Positions 1 to 19,829 of a stretch of 64,000 nt of DNA are shown piece by piece (position 1 is the first letter of the stretch; every line of letters begins with the position of its first letter). The notes under the pieces were generated by a model. It did not search any database and was not told the DNA's origin. It saw only the letters and a program-made list of their open reading frames with translations. The DNA is from an uncultured Clostridiaceae bacterium. GTDB taxonomy: Bacteria > Bacillota > Clostridia > TANB77 > CAG-508. Where the stretch lies: contig CANSJQ010000001.1 in NCBI GenBank assembly GCA_947647275.1, positions 319,046 through 383,045 of the forward strand. The letters run 5' to 3'. Both the position numbers and the translations under genes were made by a program.

Positions 1-2515
1 ACATAACGCTGGGTATGATGTTGTTGTTACCGAACCTCGGCGCATGGCTGCTTGGTCATTAGCAGAAAGAGTAGCAGAAGAAATGGAAACACCATTAGGT
101 GAAACTGTAGGTTTCAGAACAGCAATGGAGAGAAATGACTCTCAAAATACATCAATACTGTATTGTACAGATGGATTAGAGTTAGTTCGGACACTTACAG
201 ACACCAAGAACAAACCTAAAGTGTTAGTAATAGATGAAGTTCACGAGTGGAACTCAAATATTGAAACACTTATAGGCTGGTCTAAGAAAAAAATCGAAGA
301 AGGCTGGTGCACAAAAGTAGTTATTATGAGTGCAACGTTGGAAAAAGAAAGCTTGGCAGAGTATTTTGAAAAAGATGTATATTCTTTAGAAGTACCAGGA
401 AGATTATTTCCAGTAAGCTTCGAAGAAAGAAGTGAAACACATCTTATTGCATCTATTGCTGAAATGGTCTCAGAAGGAAGAAATACATTAGTATTTGTTC
501 CTGGGAAAAAAGAGATTGCAGAAGTAATTGAAAAACTTTCTTCTAACAATGTAAAAGCAAAAGTGCTTCCATTACATGGAGAGCTTGATTGCGAAGAACA
601 GAAAAAGTGCTTTTATAGTTACTCTCTTCCTAAGGTGGTTGTAGCTACAAATGTGGCGCAAACATCAATAACCATTCCGGACATCGATGCAGTAGTAGAT
701 ACTGGAAAAGAAAGACGCTTAGAAACATATGATGGTATTCAGGGCTTATTCTTAAGAAATACAAGTAAGGCAGACTGCATGCAAAGAAAAGGCCGTGCAG
801 GAAGAACAAAAGAAGGCAAATACATTCTTTGTTCAGATACCTACTTTGAAGACAGAGAAGAGTTCTCTGTACCTGAAATTCAAAGATGTCTTTTAGAACA
901 AACAGTATTGCGCTTAGCAACTATCGGAATTGATGCAGTAGAGTTTCCGTTCTTCCATCAGCCAAAGGTAGAAGAGCTTATAAGAGCAAAAGAAACACTT
1001 ATAGACTTAGGAGCGCTCAAAGAAGACAACACAGTAACTCCAATCGGCTACAAGATGGCTAAAATGCCAGTAGGCGTTCAGTCAGCAAGAATGATTATCG
1101 AAGCTGAGAAATATGGTGTTACAGAAGAAGTTATTAAAATTGCCTCTATTGTAGAAATCGGAACACTGCTTAGCAAAGATGCTTCATATTCAGACTTTAC
1201 TTGTGAAAGAGAAAGTGATCTGTTAGCAGAGCTGGATGTGTGGAATAAACTTCAGAAAATGGGGTTTGTAAAGTTCGAAGAGTTAGGCATTAACAAAAAA
1301 GTTTTCTTCCGAATTAAAGAACACATCAAAAGAATGCATGAAGCATTAAAAGGAGTTGTACAAATAGCATATTGCGAAGACCGTAAGGCAATAAAGATGG
1401 CATGCATGGCTGGAATGATTAACCACGTATACAAAAATACTGGTTATAGCTATGTAAATGGAGATGGAGTTGACAGACAGTTAGACCGCAAAAGTTGCTT
1501 ACACTATAGTAGTACAAGTTTAGTAGTTGGTAAGCCAAGAATTATTGAGTATAAAGACTCGTGGGGCAGGAAAAGAACAATGGACTTGGTTACAATAGCA
1601 ACAAAGGTAAGTGCTGAGGAGTTAAAAGAAATAGCACCTCAATTTATTACAGAAGAGGAAACAGATTGTTATTACTCTTCCTATGAGGACGCTGTTAAAG
1701 TAACAAAGGTAACATATTTTAAAGATATTCGAATTGCAGAAGATACTCAAGCAGTTCCAAATCATCCAGATTATGCAAAATTAAAGGCAGAGTATGAAAG
1801 CAGTAATAGAAGTACTTACTACGAAGATAGAAGGCAAAAAACAATAGAAATTGACGGGAAAGCCTTTAAAGTAGACTATGGTTGGAGAGAAACATCAATA
1901 ACTGTAGATAAGTACACACTGTATCATTCAGATGCTAAAAGAGTAGCATTAGATGATGGAACACAGGTAACGCTTTATTATTATGGAGATTCTTGGCATG
2001 GTCAAACAGGAAACAGTATGACTGACTTAAGAAACAAAGTAGAACGTGCAAGAGTAAAAGCAGCATGGGATAGAGTAAAAAGAAATCTTCCCGAATTAGA
2101 AGCATTCGATATCTCTTCAGTATTAAAATGCATTCCTTACATAGGAAAGCAGGAAATAACAATTGGTAATGGTGGATATGGCGAAACTATTTATGGCTTT
2201 GGATGCATTTCTTTGCAGAAAAACAATTCTCTGAAATTAGAATTAATTGAAGATGAAGAAAAGTCAGCAGAGAAGACAAAAGAAGCTATCGAGTTTCTAT
2301 ATGGAAAACACATTAAAGAAAATTATTCTGAAAAGAAATTCAAGTTTCTGAAAGGTGTAAAAGGCCTATCCAAAAAAGAACAAAGAGTAAAGGAGGAATT
2401 TGACTCCGAAGTACGACAGCTATTAGAAGGATTGGATATCAGCAACATTGAAGAAAGAATTTCCTACTTGGAAGAATTATACAATGTGCTAATTGAAGAT
2501 TTAAAAATAGCGTAA
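1..2515 (+). CDS. DEAH-box (HrpA/HrpB-like) ATP-dependent helicase, 5' partial. The reading frame is open from position 2. A roughly 370-aa C-terminal extension is not recognised.
   Basis: Motifs TEPRRMAA (Ib), VLVIDEVHE (DEAH), IMSATL (III) and QRKGRAGR (VI) in the 44..2515 ORF. The frame continues upstream to the window edge (GYDVVVTEPRR). GC content is visibly higher than in flanking genes. Confidence 0.8.
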   Translation, partial: HNAGYDVVVTEPRRMAAWSLAERVAEEMETPLGETVGFRTAMERNDSQNTSILYCTDGLELVRTLTDTKNKPKVLVIDEVHEWNSNIETLIGWSKKKIEEGWCTKVVIMSATLEKESLAEYFEKDVYSLEVPGRLFPVSFEERSETHLIASIAEMVSEGRNTLVFVPGKKEIAEVIEKLSSNNVKAKVLPLHGELDCEEQKKCFYSYSLPKVVVATNVAQTSITIPDIDAVVDTGKERRLETYDGIQGLFLRNTSKADCMQRKGRAGRTKEGKYILCSDTYFEDREEFSVPEIQRCLLEQTVLRLATIGIDAVEFPFFHQPKVEELIRAKETLIDLGALKEDNTVTPIGYKMAKMPVGVQSARMIIEAEKYGVTEEVIKIASIVEIGTLLSKDASYSDFTCERESDLLAELDVWNKLQKMGFVKFEELGINKKVFFRIKEHIKRMHEALKGVVQIAYCEDRKAIKMACMAGMINHVYKNTGYSYVNGDGVDRQLDRKSCLHYSSTSLVVGKPRIIEYKDSWGRKRTMDLVTIATKVSAEELKEIAPQFITEEETDCYYSSYEDAVKVTKVTYFKDIRIAEDTQAVPNHPDYAKLKAEYESSNRSTYYEDRRQKTIEIDGKAFKVDYGWRETSITVDKYTLYHSDAKRVALDDGTQVTLYYYGDSWHGQTGNSMTDLRNKVERARVKAAWDRVKRNLPELEAFDISSVLKCIPYIGKQEITIGNGGYGETIYGFGCISLQKNNSLKLELIEDEEKSAEKTKEAIEFLYGKHIKENYSEKKFKFLKGVKGLSKKEQRVKEEFDSEVRQLLEGLDISNIEERISYLEELYNVLIEDLKIA

Positions 2516-2570: not shown

Positions 2571-3257
2571 TTATACAACATACAATAGAATACAAAGAAA
2601 ATGCAATAAATTTCCTAAAAATATAAATATATGGAAAACAGAATGAATATATTTATGCTTTTTCCCAATTCCATATAATACAGCTCCAATAGTATAAATA
2701 ATACCACCAAGAAGTAAAAGTACAAATCCAGAAATAGTTAATAAACTAGGTAATATATTAATTTTAACAATAATACACCATCCCATTAAAAGGTAACAAA
2801 CCATAGAAAGCACCTTATATTTTTTAATATCAATAGAATTAAAAATAATACCTAAAATAGCAGCAAGCCAAATAATAGCAAGAATAGAATAACCAGTTAT
2901 AGGGTTATATTCTCTTAATGTGCATAAACAAAAAGGAGTATATGAACCAGCTATTAAAATAAAAATAGAACAATGGTCTAAAATTTGAAAAACTTTTTTA
3001 GCCTTAAGTTTAGGACTAAGCCCATGATATATACTAGACATTGAGTAAAGTAAAATCATAGAAAAACCAAAAATAATACCACTAACAATGCCATAAACAT
3101 TATTGTGAATACCCGCAAAAATAGGTACCAATATAAGGGCAATAGCACCTAAAGCACCACCCACAATATGAGTAACCATATTAAAAATTTCCTCACCTTT
3201 TGTATAAGAAGGTAAAACTCTATCATTCAATTTCGTTCTTTCCAAATAAATCAACAC
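2571..3257 (-). CDS. Hemolysin III family (PAQR/YqfA-like) channel protein
   Basis: 228-aa seven-TM protein with the typical HlyIII signature (HxxGG, SSIYH). Confidence 0.8.
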   Translation of the reverse strand: MLIYLERTKLNDRVLPSYTKGEEIFNMVTHIVGGALGAIALILVPIFAGIHNNVYGIVSGIIFGFSMILLYSMSSIYHGLSPKLKAKKVFQILDHCSIFILIAGSYTPFCLCTLREYNPITGYSILAIIWLAAILGIIFNSIDIKKYKVLSMVCYLLMGWCIIVKINILPSLLTISGFVLLLLGGIIYTIGAVLYGIGKKHKYIHSVFHIFIFLGNLLHFLCILLYVV

Positions 3258-15540: not shown

Positions 15541-16459
15541 ATGAAAGAAAAATTAATTTACATACCAGAGTTTTTAAAAGAAATGTTAAATAAGCAATAT
15601 GGAGAAAAATTGGCAGAAAGAATAATAGAAGGTTATAGTGTAAAAAGACCTGTTACTTTTAGGGCAAATACATTAAAAGTAACTTTAGTAGAAATTGAAA
15701 ATAAATTAAAAGAATTAGGAATTGAATTCGAGAAAGTACCTTGGAGTAAAGAAGCATTTATAATAAAAAATGCAAACGAAAAAGAAATAGAAAATTGGGA
15801 AATGTACAAAAACGGAGAAATATATCTTCAAAGCTTATCTTCAATGTTACCACCAATAATATTAGAGCCAAAAGAAAATACAGATATATTAGATATGGCG
15901 GCAGCACCAGGAGGAAAGACCACACAGCTAGCAGCACTAACTCAAAATAATGCTCATATTACAGCTTGCGAAATGAACACTATTAGGCTTGAAAGACTAA
16001 AATACAATATAGAAAAACAAGGAGCAACATCAATTTATACAATGCAAACAGATAGTAGAAGAATAGACGACTTTTTCTCATTTGACCAAATTCTATTAGA
16101 TGCTCCATGTTCACGGAAGTGGAACATTAAATATAAATGGTATTAATATAGAAAAAACATTTACAAAAAAGTTAATAGAAAAATCCACTGTATCTCAATT
16201 ACAACTTCTAAAAAAAGCTATAAAAATATTAAAACCAGGCCATGAAATGATATATTCAACATGTTCAATACTAGCATGTGAAAACGAAGAAATAATAGAA
16301 AAAGCATTAAAAGGGGAAAAGGCTAAAATAGTACCAATAAATTTAGAAGCAATGGAAGAATTACCACTATTACCAACTAAAATACAAGAAACACTTTGTG
16401 TAGCCCCAAATGAATTATATGAAGGTTTCTTTATTGCAAAAATATATAAAGGAAATTAA
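15541..16459 (+). pseudogene. NOL1/NOP2/Sun-family rRNA (cytosine-C5) methyltransferase, interrupted by a +1 frameshift (extra C at 16114 before a GGA Gly codon)
   Basis: ORFs 15541..16146 and 16100..16459 join to give DAPCS-G-SGTLNINGIN. Deleting c16114 (tgttcaCggaagt) restores the frame. Motifs ILDMAAAPGGKT and DAPCSGSG, plus the catalytic TCS. Confidence 0.8.
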
Positions 16460-16872: not shown

Positions 16873-16935
16873 AATAAAACTCCTATATAATTATTATAAA
16901 TAAAAAACAAAAAAAGTGCAAGCTAAAATTTAAAA

Positions 16936-17027
16936 TAGTGACAATGGGACGGGGTTTTTGTCACTACCATTTTAGAATTTAATATAACTGAAATAGTAGT
17001 GACAAAAACCCCGTCCCATTGTCACTA
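16936..17027. repeat. 92-bp perfect hairpin: 32-bp inverted repeat (tagtgacaatgggacggggtttttgtcactac) with a 28-nt spacer. Each arm is itself palindromic.
   Basis: Exact reverse-complement arms at 16936..16967 and 16996..17027. The right arm overlaps the stop of the 17025..17459 gene. Confidence 0.8.
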
Positions 17028-17459
17028 CAAATATTTTTTTAAAGTTTCAATACTATCTTCTTGCATAACAACAAAATCATTTAAAACATTTTTCACATCT
17101 TTATCAGCATTAGGATTTTGATTAATAAGTCTTCTACCTTCAATAATACCCATATTAGTTCCTTGCATTAATAGTTCAGAAAGCTTAGAATTACTATTAT
17201 CAGCAATAGTTTTCATTTGTACACCATACCAAGTCATAGCTTTATTCATAGCATTTGTTTCATGAGGCTCTTTGCTACTAAAATTAGAATATATATCATT
17301 AACTCTATTAGATATTTTTTTGTATTTATTATATTCAATGTCTAAGACTTCCTTAAAAGTATCATCCTTAACTTTTTCTGAAACAAAAGATATTGCATCC
17401 ATTCCCATAGTAGCACCTTTATTAATTTCATCTAAAATATTTAAATTTTGATTTTCCAT
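17025..17459 (-). CDS. Hypothetical helical (ferritin-like/DUF2383-like?) protein
   Basis: 144-aa ORF with RBS. Weak resemblance to four-helix-bundle stress proteins. Confidence 0.35.
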   Translation of the reverse strand: MENQNLNILDEINKGATMGMDAISFVSEKVKDDTFKEVLDIEYNKYKKISNRVNDIYSNFSSKEPHETNAMNKAMTWYGVQMKTIADNSNSKLSELLMQGTNMGIIEGRRLINQNPNADKDVKNVLNDFVVMQEDSIETLKKYL

Positions 17460-17580: not shown

Positions 17581-17609
17581 TTTGACAAATAAAAATTAAT
17601 ATGTTAAAA
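17581..17609 (+). promoter_or_regulatory. Sigma-A type promoter of the MATE gene (TTGACA, 17 nt, TGtTAAAAT), followed by a ~220-nt structured leader
   Basis: ttgacaaataaaaattaatatgttaaaat. The leader contains a terminator-like hairpin caacacagaataaaaatgtgttg plus T-run near 17665..17700, and a second hairpin near 17720..17770. Confidence 0.5.
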
Positions 17610-17828
17610 TTACAAACGTGGCAAATGGAAACGAACATTATTTTTAAGTAATGATTAACGAACAACACAGAATAAAAATGTGTTGTATTTTTGTGCGTAA
17701 TAAGAAGTTATAAGTTGAAATATTAGGTAAATTCTTGGAAGAAGTTACCTAATAAAAATGTAACTTCTATAAAATTAGAAATTAATAGCGAACAGTACAC
17801 GCTTTGTGTAAGAAAGGAGAAGAGAAAG

Positions 17829-19829
17829 TTGGAAAAAGAAGAAAATATTTTAGGAAAAGAGAAAATAGGAAAATTAATTAGAAAATTTTCTGTTCCATGT
17901 ATTATATCTTTATTAGTAAACTCTTTATATAATATAGTTGACCAAATATTTATTGGTTGGGGAGTAGGATATTTAGGAAATGGAGCAACTAATATAGTTT
18001 TCCCATTAACTATGGTATGTTTAGCTTTTGCACTAATGTTTGGAGATGGAACATCAGCATATTTAAGTTTAAGACTAGGAGAAAAGAAAGAAAAAGAAGC
18101 AGGTAAAGGTGTTGGAAATGGTATAGCAATATCAATAATAGTAGCAGTACTTTTATGTACAGTAACATTAATATTTTTACCACAAATATTAAACTTATTT
18201 GGTTGTACACAAGCTCTAAGAGAATATGCTTTGAATTATGGCTATATAATAGGTGTAGGCTTGCCATTTATGATGGTAGGAACAACTTTAAATTCAATAA
18301 TAAGAGCAGATGGAAATCCAAAATATGCAATGACATCAATGGTAACAGGTGCAATTTTAAATATCATATTAGACCCAATATTTATATTTGTATTTAAAAT
18401 GGGAGTACAAGGTGCAGCAATAGCAACTGTTATAAGTCAAATAGTAACATTTGCAATTAATATAATGTATATAAAGAAGTTTAAATCTATAAAAATAGGA
18501 AAAGAAGAATTTAAACTAAAACCAAGTGTAATTCAAAAAGTATCAGCTTTAGGAATAAGTAGTTTTATTACACAAATAAGTATAGTATTTGTAATAGCAG
18601 TTGAAAATAATCTACTTGGAAAATATGGAGCGAATTCAAAATTTGGTTCAGAAATACCAATTACTGTATTGGGAATTGTTATGAAAATAAGCCAGATATT
18701 AAACAGTATAGTAATAGGAATTGCAGCAGGTTCACAGCCAATATTAGGTTACAACTATGGTGCAGCAAAAATGGATAGAGTAAAGCAAACCTTAAAAATA
18801 GTACTTGGAACAAGTGTAATAATAAGTACAATAGCATTTATACTATTCCAAACAATACCAGATAAATTAATAGTGGTTTTTGGTAGTGGTGATGCACTAT
18901 ATATGGAATTTGCATGTATATCATTTAGAATATATTTAATGCTATGTATATGTAATGGAATACAAATTCCAGCAGGAATATTCTTCCAAGCAATAGGAAA
19001 AAGCGCAAAAAGTGCAATACTTTCATTATCAAGACAGATACTATTCTTAATACCAGCAATGGTGGTACTTGGAGAATTATTTGGAATAAAAGGTTTCCTA
19101 TATTCAGGACCATTTGCAGATGGTTTAGCCTTCATAATAGCAGGATTATTACTTGTAATTGAAATAAAACATCTTGGAAAAGAAAAAACAAAAAGTGAAG
19201 CTTTAGAAAACAATACATTAAAACATAATAAACTAGATAAACATATGGTAATAACAATATCAAGAGAATATGGCTCAGGTGGAAGATATGTAGGAAGACT
19301 AATTGCAGATAAACTAGGAATAAAATTTTATGATAAAGAAATAATAACAAAACTAGCAGAAAAAACAGGATTATCAGAAGAATATATAGAAAATAATGAG
19401 CAAAAGAAAGAAACATTAGCAAACCTAAATAATGGATATTACTTTGGGTTAAACAATAGTGATGAACTATTCTTAAAAGAATCAGAATTAATAAAAGAGT
19501 TATCAAGCAAAGAATCTTGTGTAATAATAGGAAGATGTGCAGACTTTATATTAAAAGACAGAAAAAATGTAATAAAAGTATTCATATATAGCAACATGGA
19601 AGATAAAATAAATAGAGCAACTAAATTTTACAAACTAGATAAAGAAAAAGCACAAAAAGAAATAACAAGAGTAGATAAATTAAGAGCAAACCATTATAAA
19701 TACTATGCGCAAAAAAAATGGAATGACCATTTAAATTATGACATATGTATAAATACAGCAACATTAGGAGTAGAAAAATCAGCAGAGTTAGTGTGTGATG
19801 TAATAAAACCAAAAGAAGCACTTTTATAA
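17829..19829 (+). CDS. MATE family efflux transporter (about 475 aa) fused in frame to a C-terminal cytidylate kinase-like (AAA_18/Cytidylate_kin2) domain. TTG start.
   Basis: N-terminal 12-TM MATE pattern (NILGKEKIGKLIRKFSVP...). From about aa 476, MVITISREYGSGGRYVGRLIADKLGIKFYDKEII is the hallmark N-terminus of cytidylate kinase-like proteins. No stop codon or RBS separates the two parts. Confidence 0.7.
   Translation: MEKEENILGKEKIGKLIRKFSVPCIISLLVNSLYNIVDQIFIGWGVGYLGNGATNIVFPLTMVCLAFALMFGDGTSAYLSLRLGEKKEKEAGKGVGNGIAISIIVAVLLCTVTLIFLPQILNLFGCTQALREYALNYGYIIGVGLPFMMVGTTLNSIIRADGNPKYAMTSMVTGAILNIILDPIFIFVFKMGVQGAAIATVISQIVTFAINIMYIKKFKSIKIGKEEFKLKPSVIQKVSALGISSFITQISIVFVIAVENNLLGKYGANSKFGSEIPITVLGIVMKISQILNSIVIGIAAGSQPILGYNYGAAKMDRVKQTLKIVLGTSVIISTIAFILFQTIPDKLIVVFGSGDALYMEFACISFRIYLMLCICNGIQIPAGIFFQAIGKSAKSAILSLSRQILFLIPAMVVLGELFGIKGFLYSGPFADGLAFIIAGLLLVIEIKHLGKEKTKSEALENNTLKHNKLDKHMVITISREYGSGGRYVGRLIADKLGIKFYDKEIITKLAEKTGLSEEYIENNEQKKETLANLNNGYYFGLNNSDELFLKESELIKELSSKESCVIIGRCADFILKDRKNVIKVFIYSNMEDKINRATKFYKLDKEKAQKEITRVDKLRANHYKYYAQKKWNDHLNYDICINTATLGVEKSAELVCDVIKPKEALL

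Follow-up and report, generated by a model that had tools for sequence, protein, structure and literature searches.

What controls a MATE-family exporter gene that carries a kinase-like domain in the same reading frame, and does the interest of such a locus lie in the fusion or in the leader that precedes it? The locus in question occupies positions 17581–19829 of a 64,000-nucleotide stretch of DNA from an uncultured Clostridiaceae bacterium (the window, to which all positions refer), which is AT-rich with 27.6% G+C. A first-pass annotation made from the letters of the sequence had described, ahead of the efflux gene, a long attenuator-like leader with a terminator-like hairpin, had attributed its action to ribosome-mediated attenuation and had regarded the fusion as unusual. 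Comparison with relatives supports a regulatory leader of this general kind. The leader, rather than the fusion, is the valuable part of the locus: comparative evidence makes it a strong candidate for a new orphan class of riboswitches that would control exporter-like membrane proteins in gut Firmicutes.

A conserved RNA element upstream of the exporter gene

The leader contains the following features.

17582–17587, plus strand: −35 hexamer, TTGACA
17602–17610, plus strand: extended −10 element, TGtTAAAAT (TG at 17602–03, TAAAAT at 17605–10)
17624–17668, plus strand: conserved RNA element (candidate aptamer), AAU-GGAAACG-A-A[CAUUAUU-UUUA-AGUAAUG]AUUAACGAACAACAC, matched by covariance model R2
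17636–17653, plus strand: hairpin P1 within the element, arms CATTATT (17636–42) and AGTAATG (17647–53), loop 17643–46
17662–17692, plus strand: intrinsic terminator, stem ACAACACA/UGUGUUGU, 9-nucleotide (nt) loop and U-rich tail; the 3′ end of the element extends into its 5′ arm
17703–17768, plus strand: further inverted repeats (a second set), nested or mutually exclusive, species-specific, with no U-tract after them
17814–17819, plus strand: Shine-Dalgarno (SD) sequence AAGGAG, 9 nt 5′ of the TTG start codon; orthologues have an equivalent GGAGG 5′ of an ATG

The element, with the consensus UGGAAACG-N-A[CAUU...AAUG]AYUAACGAACAACAC, is ∼45 nt long and scores 65.1 bits (E = 5e-14) with covariance model R2; the window holds a single copy. 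Its spread was assessed in a GTDB scan with one genome per species, in which 119 stretches encoded relatives of the fusion protein and the best 80 were taken as loci, all 80 of them from gut Clostridia metagenome-assembled genomes (MAGs) or CAG genomes. The 13-mer TAACGAACAACAC was found exactly once in each of 12 of the 80 orthologue loci, always upstream and on the strand of the gene, and the covariance model placed the full element upstream of the fusion gene in 14 of the 80. The same model found no further copies in the window or elsewhere in the genome loci; one match (L079:8414–8489) lies inside a coding open reading frame (ORF) of 232 amino acids (aa) and was rejected as chance. No copies were found near stand-alone or otherwise-fused PF13189 genes (the family of the kinase-like domain), and a scan of viral contigs gave 0 matches.

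An alignment of 12 sequences and 86 columns, with loci chosen by the 13-mer only, spans the element and the terminator, and 38 of its 86 columns are invariant. It runs from UGGAAACG-N-ACAUU through a hairpin interior that varies to AAUGAYUAACGAACAACAC, and on through a loop, likewise variable, to GUGUU and a U-run. In a larger alignment (A4), 31 columns are invariant across 27 sequences. Mean identity reaches 0.88–0.94 in the motif blocks, compared with 0.40 in the flanking leader; the gene has 0.71 at its third codon positions. Both the P1 hairpin and the terminator are backed as helices by RNAalifold and by pair counts, with compensatory changes in the distal pairs; the distal stem of the terminator likewise covaries among orthologues. 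In alignment A4, the fifth pair of P1 is CG in 11 sequences, AU in 7, GC in 6 and GU in 1, a covariation matched by 0 of 500 shuffles. Across 35 distinct P1 interiors the same pair is CG 14, AU 9, GC 6, UA 2 and GU 1 with 3 mismatches. For P1 and the distal terminator stem, the observed covariation and percentage paired were reached by 0 of 500 shuffles, and slid controls were 30%–69% paired, as against 94%. The element occurs in distant lineages, AT-rich leaders having ∼25% G+C within it and others 40%–49%. Sequence and structure are thus conserved across divergent lineages, with covarying helices, as is expected of a riboswitch class.

The promoter upstream of the element is real but not "perfect," as it had been called: the sigma-A site at 17582–17610 has a 17-nt spacer and is the top-scoring site of the region, with 11 of 12 positions matching and the −10 hexamer at 5 of 6. 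Promoter-like sites overall are not enriched (32 found, 26.4 expected by chance). The same TTGACA hexamer, and indeed TTGACA-17-TA(A/T)(A/T)AT, occupies the same position in many orthologous leaders. From the spacing, transcription would start at ∼17616–17618, ∼7 nt past the −10 hexamer.

The predicted hairpin with its T-run was also borne out, at 17662–17692. Its arms, ACAACACA at 17662–69 and TGTGTTGT at 17679–86, are 100% complementary over 8 bp, and the tail TATTTTTG (within the stretch UAUUUUUG that follows the hairpin) has 7 U in 10; with a folding energy of −9.1 kcal/mol, the structure has the features predicted for an intrinsic terminator. A consensus terminator scanner missed it, probably because the 9-nt loop exceeds the scanner's stated limit of 3–8 nt. 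The leader as a whole folds better than shuffled controls (z = −3.1). Farther downstream, in the 130-nt interval that separates the terminator from the SD sequence, AGAAGTTA(C) occurs twice (17703–10 and 17740–48), each copy being able to pair with GTAACTTCT at 17760–68, and a 16-nt inverted repeat (17721–36/17739–54) lies inside the same region. This set was rejected as a second terminator or antiterminator, since no U-tract follows it and conservation does not extend to orthologue L003, which is 90% identical.

Two expression platforms and a second gene family

The element is associated with a second family of membrane proteins. A metagenome scan with the pattern GGAAACGNACATT...AATG..TAACGAAC returned at least 120 loci, and among the matches listed the downstream ORF encodes a DUF2798 protein in 112 of 114 cases and a MATE protein in 2 (one of them lacking the kinase-like domain). 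The DUF2798 product is a membrane protein of ∼155 aa that starts MPK(T/N)KF and is recognized by Pfam as DUF2798, with no NCBIfam model. The association holds without the pattern: four of four DUF2798 genes picked by protein search, from Ruminococcus sp. and Oscillospiraceae, carry the element 35–90 nt upstream. In one of these settings (L220), CAUC...GAUG replaces CAUU...AAUG, so that the otherwise invariant U-A at pair 4 becomes C-G; in another (L210), the spacer after ACG is 2 nt long instead of 1 nt. Locus L195, a single contig, has two DUF2798 paralogues with their own copies of the element, at 689–729 (minus strand) and 2688–2735 (plus strand). In the second copy there, found by the covariance model only, P1 is rebuilt and accompanied by a short hairpin resembling a terminator; the DUF2798 paralogue downstream of it appears frameshifted. 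Compensatory changes are thus present in L220 and L195b, both found without a sequence pattern. Separately, in L210–L219 the DUF2798 gene and its element are flanked on both sides by transposases (DDE_Tnp_1, DDE_3) in many samples, which suggests that the cassette can be mobile.

The distinct leaders collected fall into 21 of the terminator type and 42 of the non-terminator type, seven distinct DUF2798 leaders being among the former. Most DUF2798 leaders have no GUGUUG after the element, and their P1 loop is CUCC(U). In these leaders a sequence complementary to the P1 arms, loop and linker, UUAAUCAUU...GGAGG, stands immediately 5′ of the start codon, and in minimum-free-energy folds the SD sequence pairs with a segment of the sensor in 40 of the 41 SD-type leaders with an identified start codon and SD sequence. 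One sensor is therefore found on two expression platforms that each overlap it, a second property of riboswitch classes. The segment AACAACAC is invariant even in leaders that lack the downstream GUGUUG; because it is conserved there without a pairing partner, it belongs to the sensor, and the terminator in the window accordingly competes with the sensor for it.

This arrangement suggests how the leader might work. From the putative start site, the first ∼50 nt of the transcript would form a small sensor composed of the 5′ strand UGGAAACG-N-A, P1 (CAUU...AAUG) and the 3′ strand AYUAACGAACAACAC. Without effector, ACAACACA would pair with UGUGUUGU, the terminator at 17662–17692 would form and transcription would end before the gene. 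An effector-bound sensor would retain its strand, leaving no terminator, and RNA polymerase would read into the exporter gene. On the DUF2798 platform (the Ruminococcus/Oscillospiraceae type), the P1 arms and CUCC loop of the unfolded sensor would pair with the SD sequence and keep expression OFF by default. As both platforms would be OFF when the sensor is unfolded, an ON switch is predicted. We consider it fairly probable, from the comparative data, that the leader is a riboswitch-like transcription-attenuation ON switch for the exporter, of an apparently undescribed class.

The first-pass annotation had instead invoked a ribosome stalled by a drug on one of two upstream ORFs (uORFs), METNIIFK or MINEQH..., which would open the terminator. 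Both frames are indeed open in the window, one from the ATG at 17625 to 17651 and the other from an ATG at 17651 (not 17648, where its start had been placed), and the second overlaps the 5′ arm of the terminator. The layout superficially resembles that of the ermC, cat, bmrB-bmrCD and vmlR attenuators, which combine a promoter-proximal terminator or sequestered SD sequence, an efflux-type gene and overlapping short ORFs. Here, however, the ORFs are unconserved and SD-less, and conservation is at the nucleotide level, independent of frame. Across the 63 distinct leaders, uORF1 starts with ATG in 9, TTG in 53 and CTG in 1, has an SD-like sequence in 11 and none in 52, and is between 6 and 48 codons in length. 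A one-nucleotide variation in the linker, next to an unchanged TAACGAACAACAC, puts uORF2 in either of two frames over the same nucleotides, M[I/T/N]NEQH in 40 leaders and M[I/L]TNNT in 23. Third codon positions, synonymous ones included, are invariant, and the first position of codon 4 varies. A start codon and SD sequence conserved in frame with a conserved peptide, the signature of a leader-peptide attenuator, was thus absent from the 63 leaders, and conservation, as judged from these patterns, acts on the RNA and not on a peptide. Moreover, the folds predict that in SD-type leaders, before DUF2798, the same sequence acts by pairing with the SD sequence. Ribosome-mediated attenuation is on this evidence scarcely credible, while the broader idea of inducible attenuation of the efflux gene, downstream of a strong promoter, remains plausible. 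For annotation in general, short ORFs in a leader are best compared across relatives before a leader-peptide mechanism is invoked.

Relation to known RNAs and the proposed effector

Searches for known RNAs gave no assignment. With 8 kb searched against Rfam 15 at E ≤ 1, no match fell in the leader; at E ≤ 10, slices of 121–141 nt gave only chance matches to viral RNAs, small nucleolar RNAs and small RNAs (sRNAs) far below their gathering scores; in eight DUF2798/MATE metagenome loci, no Rfam match overlapped the element. Queries with DUF2798, PF11391 and the core 11-mer ACGAACAACAC returned nothing in this context in the open-access literature, where guanidine-IV and Gd4v were the only related RNAs to come up.

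The closest parallels in logic are the guanidine-IV RNA (mepA motif) and Gd4v. Like the proposed switch, they are transcriptional ON switches with a 5′ hairpin and an intrinsic terminator, located upstream of MepA/MATE-like exporters in Firmicutes, and Gd4v is, like the window element, a gut-enriched orphan without a known ligand. In those RNAs, the conserved nucleotides lie in the loops of P1 and the terminator, which form a pseudoknot or kissing interaction. In contrast, both loops are variable in the window element, and the invariant parts are the strands flanking P1 and the 5′ arm of the terminator. Pairing conserved loops were not found among the 35 P1 interiors and the variable terminator loops, nor did Rfam report a match, and it is this difference in the loops that sets the element apart from guanidine-IV and Gd4v. 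The gene sets differ as well: guanidine-IV is found with SugE, Gd4v with a transaminase and GNAT, and the window element with DUF2798.

In size, the element resembles preQ1-I and guanidine-II (mini-ykkC), small sensors with conserved strands around one hairpin. These also comprise ∼35–50 nt with one short stem and invariant flanks, and act through a terminator or an SD-occluding platform. The two ACG triplets of the element are reminiscent of the ACGR motifs of guanidine-II, a lead and not a test; in guanidine-II, however, ACGR lies in tetraloops, whereas the triplets here are in the flanking strands. The A-rich tail that pairs with the loop in preQ1-I has no counterpart in the window element, and neither class shows sequence or covariance-model similarity to it.

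We infer that the sensor binds an effector, that this is a small molecule and that binding turns expression on. Because the regulon consists only of exporter-like membrane proteins, the likeliest effector would be a small molecule with toxic action, or a cation, expelled by the exporters. The specific proposal that 17624–17692 represents a new riboswitch class, widespread in human-gut Firmicutes ("DUF2798/MATE motif"), which senses a toxic metabolite or cation and switches on exporters, is put forward tentatively, as a possibility somewhat short of an even bet. Several observations weigh against reading the leader as an ON switch of the riboswitch type. The element has one demonstrable helix only, and no covarying partner was found for its two invariant single strands, so that the effector could equally be a protein and the element its binding site. 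The ON polarity rests on thermodynamic folds, and the terminator in the window is modest, with 3 G-C pairs in its 8 bp. The distribution is patchy: orthologue L002 (92% aa identity) has a different upstream region without the element, L003 (90%) has two substitutions at otherwise invariant positions, ∼25 further orthologues carry leaders of another kind, although these too finish with an ACAC...GUGU terminator, and ∼41 have no terminator leader within 320 nt. The invariance of the metagenome copies is partly circular, as the scan pattern fixes most of the conserved positions; the unbiased copies are those from the 80 genome loci, the four protein-based look-ups and two found by the covariance model only. 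Finally, the class is apparently undescribed, but absence from Rfam and the open-access literature is no proof of being unpublished.

A macromolecule might take the place of the small molecule. An antiterminator protein (by the logic of PyrR, TRAP or LicT), a transfer RNA or an sRNA would bind the two invariant strands, at the sites GGAAACG-N-AC and UAACGAACAAC that flank P1 and have the repeat AACGNAC in common, and would stabilize the sensor against the terminator or SD helix. Such a reading would account for invariant nucleotides in formally single-stranded segments, for half-sites that resemble a direct repeat AACG-N-AC, and for an element that is very short with a single helix. Yet no regulator gene is linked to the element in ∼150 loci, where the neighbouring genes vary, and the element spans distant lineages, from ∼25% to 40%–49% G+C. 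An exporter-only regulon is, moreover, the typical signature of riboswitches for ions and toxic metabolites, and one-hairpin sensors of this size do exist, preQ1-I and guanidine-II among them. We regard a macromolecular effector as unlikely, if less so than the other alternatives. It would also be conceivable that there is no conditional regulation, the element being conserved as a 5′ stabilizer or as a site of processing, and the hairpin, a constitutive and leaky attenuator, doing no more than hold a potentially toxic membrane protein at a low basal level. A terminator as weak as −9.1 kcal/mol would leak, and close relatives do without the element (L002). A constitutive attenuator would nevertheless need neither the ∼31 invariant upstream nucleotides nor an overlap of the sensor with a terminator or with an SD sequence that is re-created before two unrelated gene families, and this account is improbable.

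Should the riboswitch proposal be correct, the orphan classes would gain one that abounds in the human gut; a single DUF2798 cluster comprises ∼1,900 member sequences, found on at least 1,000 contigs. The ligand would reveal a compound that gut Clostridia must expel, and its export would be the first functional handle on DUF2798 and on the transporter-fused PF13189 domain, which might itself recognize that compound, or a nucleotide, at the cytoplasmic face. A ∼45-nt sensor that operates on two platforms would be easily testable and is a candidate part for synthetic biology.

Some further observations on these leaders are recorded here. By eye, the invariant strands could be paired in several ways (with a GGU upstream; UUGG with the CCA of the start region; in a GAAA-tetraloop mini-hairpin; or CG with CG of the ACG triplets), and these candidates were set aside for want of covariation support. 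In L004, L009, L010, L012, L015, L048 and L078, a UGCGU(UU)-like stretch directly after the U-tract is complementary to AAACGCA in the 5′ strand of the sensor and would enclose the whole switch in read-through transcripts; the window copy, GUGCGU at 17693–17698, is mismatched. As a general feature, this UGCGU/ACGCA pairing was rejected: a Watson-Crick match of at least 5 nt is present in 7 of the 21 terminator-type leaders and not in the window. Two other leader types precede the same fusion gene. Type B1 has CGCUGUAAAGCG..AGCCAACAC-loop-GUGUUGUCUUUUU directly after the TTGACA promoter (L021, L022, L035, L039, L045, L049, L061 and L066), and type B2 has UUUUGCAAAAUGAAGAUUA...GUAGCAAAAAACACCU-loop-AGGUGUUUUU (L006–L008, L011, L013, L014 and L016). 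Rfam gave no match to these other leader types in the seven loci searched; they too may serve this regulon as sensors.

The MATE/PF13189 fusion and neighbouring features

The gene downstream of the leader is composed as follows.

17829–19829, plus strand: MATE/PF13189 fusion ORF, TTG start, 666 aa, confirmed
17829–19172, plus strand: MATE part of the coding sequence (two MatE stretches, 12 transmembrane segments, 12-TM), aa 1–448, from Pfam and NCBIfam
19173–19244, plus strand: hydrophilic linker of 24 aa, aa 449–472 (KHLGKEKTKSEALENNTLKHNKLDKH region), stop-free
19245–19829, plus strand: C-terminal PF13189 domain, aa 473–666 and stop codon, with a non-canonical P-loop, REYGSGGR

The single 666-aa frame with a stop-free junction was confirmed by the ORF and by Pfam: MVITISREYGSGG begins at nt 19245, and the passage from the MATE part to the kinase-like part is open. 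Among the genome loci compared, orthologues share the same N terminus, MEKEENIL, and start mostly with ATG. The closest locus, L001, from a gut "uncultured Clostridiaceae" MAG, has 99% protein identity over the fusion gene. With a divergent gene upstream and a 130-nt gap before the next ORF, the MATE-family exporter gene apparently forms a unit of its own.

The fusion had been thought unusual, and a check for a lost stop codon had been advised; the comparison argues the opposite. Both PF13189 and PF01554 are present in all 120 of the best matches examined out of 8,000 returned from a collection of 5.8 billion proteins. An uninterrupted fusion ORF of 653–695 aa is found in 76 of the 80 species loci, with two more cut by contig ends and two having premature stops. 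Stop loss or an assembly artefact as the origin of the fusion is ruled out by these intact relatives, and the MATE/kinase-like fusion is a genuine, ordinary conserved architecture in gut Clostridia. The premature stops, in L061 and L080, come after 76 and 84 codons and mark pseudogenes or assembly errors.

The exporter part belongs to the MATE family, with a PF01554 MatE match in two stretches (E = 6e-34) and a TIGR00797 score of 182 bits over aa 23–420 against a cutoff of 147.4. It falls below the NCBIfam cutoff of every named MATE equivalog scored: PRK09575 (241 of 445 bits, the closest resemblance), MepA (123 of 850), FepA (112 of 900), DinF (38 of 409) and NorM (27 of 449). A substrate can therefore not be transferred from VmrA/PRK09575, MepA or FepA. 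These share with the window protein the full-length 12-TM MatE architecture; the window protein differs by its additional cytoplasmic domain of 194 aa.

This C-terminal domain had been labelled AAA_18. At E ≤ 0.01, Pfam assigns it to PF13189 (Cytidylate_kin2) over aa 474–644, covering profile positions 1–175 of 176 with 182.6 bits against a threshold of 28 (E = 1e-53), and AAA_18 is not among the matches. Its only solved sequence relatives are 3hdt (E = 1e-35) and 3fdi (E = 2e-27), both structural-genomics entries. An AlphaFold model of the domain (pLDDT 93) superposes best on these two, with target-normalised TM-scores of 0.90 for 3hdt and 0.91 for 3fdi, and next on shikimate, cytidine monophosphate (CMP) and adenylate kinases; the predicted structure has the nucleoside monophosphate kinase fold. 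In profile alignments, REYGSGGR lies against the P-loops GPASSGKS and GPSGTGKS of the CMP kinases 1q3t and 3r8c, with a nearly invariant Gly in place of the Walker A lysine and an invariant Arg in place of the motif's first Gly. The GR(C/D) and LID arginine positions of Cmk do align with the domain. The Walker A motif GxxxxGK[ST] with its catalytic lysine was not found, RxxGSGG[R/H] standing in its place, and the Cmk equivalog model TIGR02173 gave 42.1 bits against a cutoff of 102.1. Because the Walker A lysine is replaced, the domain is, judged by its motifs, not a bona fide CMP kinase, and the name "cytidylate kinase" is unsuitable. No functional study of PF13189 was found in the searchable literature.

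The 3hdt and 3fdi proteins are PF13189 proteins; in the window, the domain instead follows a 12-TM MATE transporter in one fused protein. When the C-terminal domain was searched by itself against 1.84 billion cluster representatives, 11,047 relatives were returned. The best 150, which were inspected, are mostly stand-alone proteins of ∼200 aa; several clusters are fusions of 660–680 aa, and about eleven comprise proteins of 400–440 aa. Pfam identifies MATE, MFS (P0195) and DUF6198/YitT-like membrane proteins as partners in the fusions, so that three types of membrane protein carry PF13189 at their cytoplasmic end; the link of the domain with membrane transport is recurrent in the sequences compared. 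The termini of MATE transporters are cytoplasmic, which makes a cytoplasmic ligand-binding or regulatory role the most economical reading, and the fused domain is most likely such a module of the transporter and not a CMP kinase. One stand-alone PF13189 copy lies 62 nt upstream of a MatE gene (P0138/L203); five further stand-alone copies have no such neighbour. The MFS-PF13189 fusion (P0195/L207) adjoins a divergent LysR gene, and the DUF6198/YitT-like fusions (P0150/L208–L209) adjoin a divergent AraC gene.

Other features of the window lie close to the locus. On the plus strand at 21405–21600, a T-box leader match precedes an ORF of 419 aa (21820–23079) that was read as tyrS-like (tyrosyl-tRNA synthetase-like) from sequence alone; at 58 bits (E = 6e-11), the match falls short of Rfam's gathering score, 93. 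The 86-aa ORF at 21114–21374 (plus strand) matches only the C-terminal part of DUF5131, positions 173–227 of 243, and is probably a gene remnant. Upstream, an RsmB/F-type 16S rRNA methyltransferase is split into two overlapping plus-strand ORFs, 15541–16146 and 16100–16459 (Pfam positions 2–91 and 106–198); the split is a frameshift, either in a pseudogene or from an assembly indel error. Between two minus-strand genes, at 16935–17028, lies a long near-perfect hairpin, GUAGUGACAAUGGGACGGGG...CCCCGUCCCAUUGUCACUAU, matched only by spurious microRNA models, which may be a bidirectional terminator or a repeat element.

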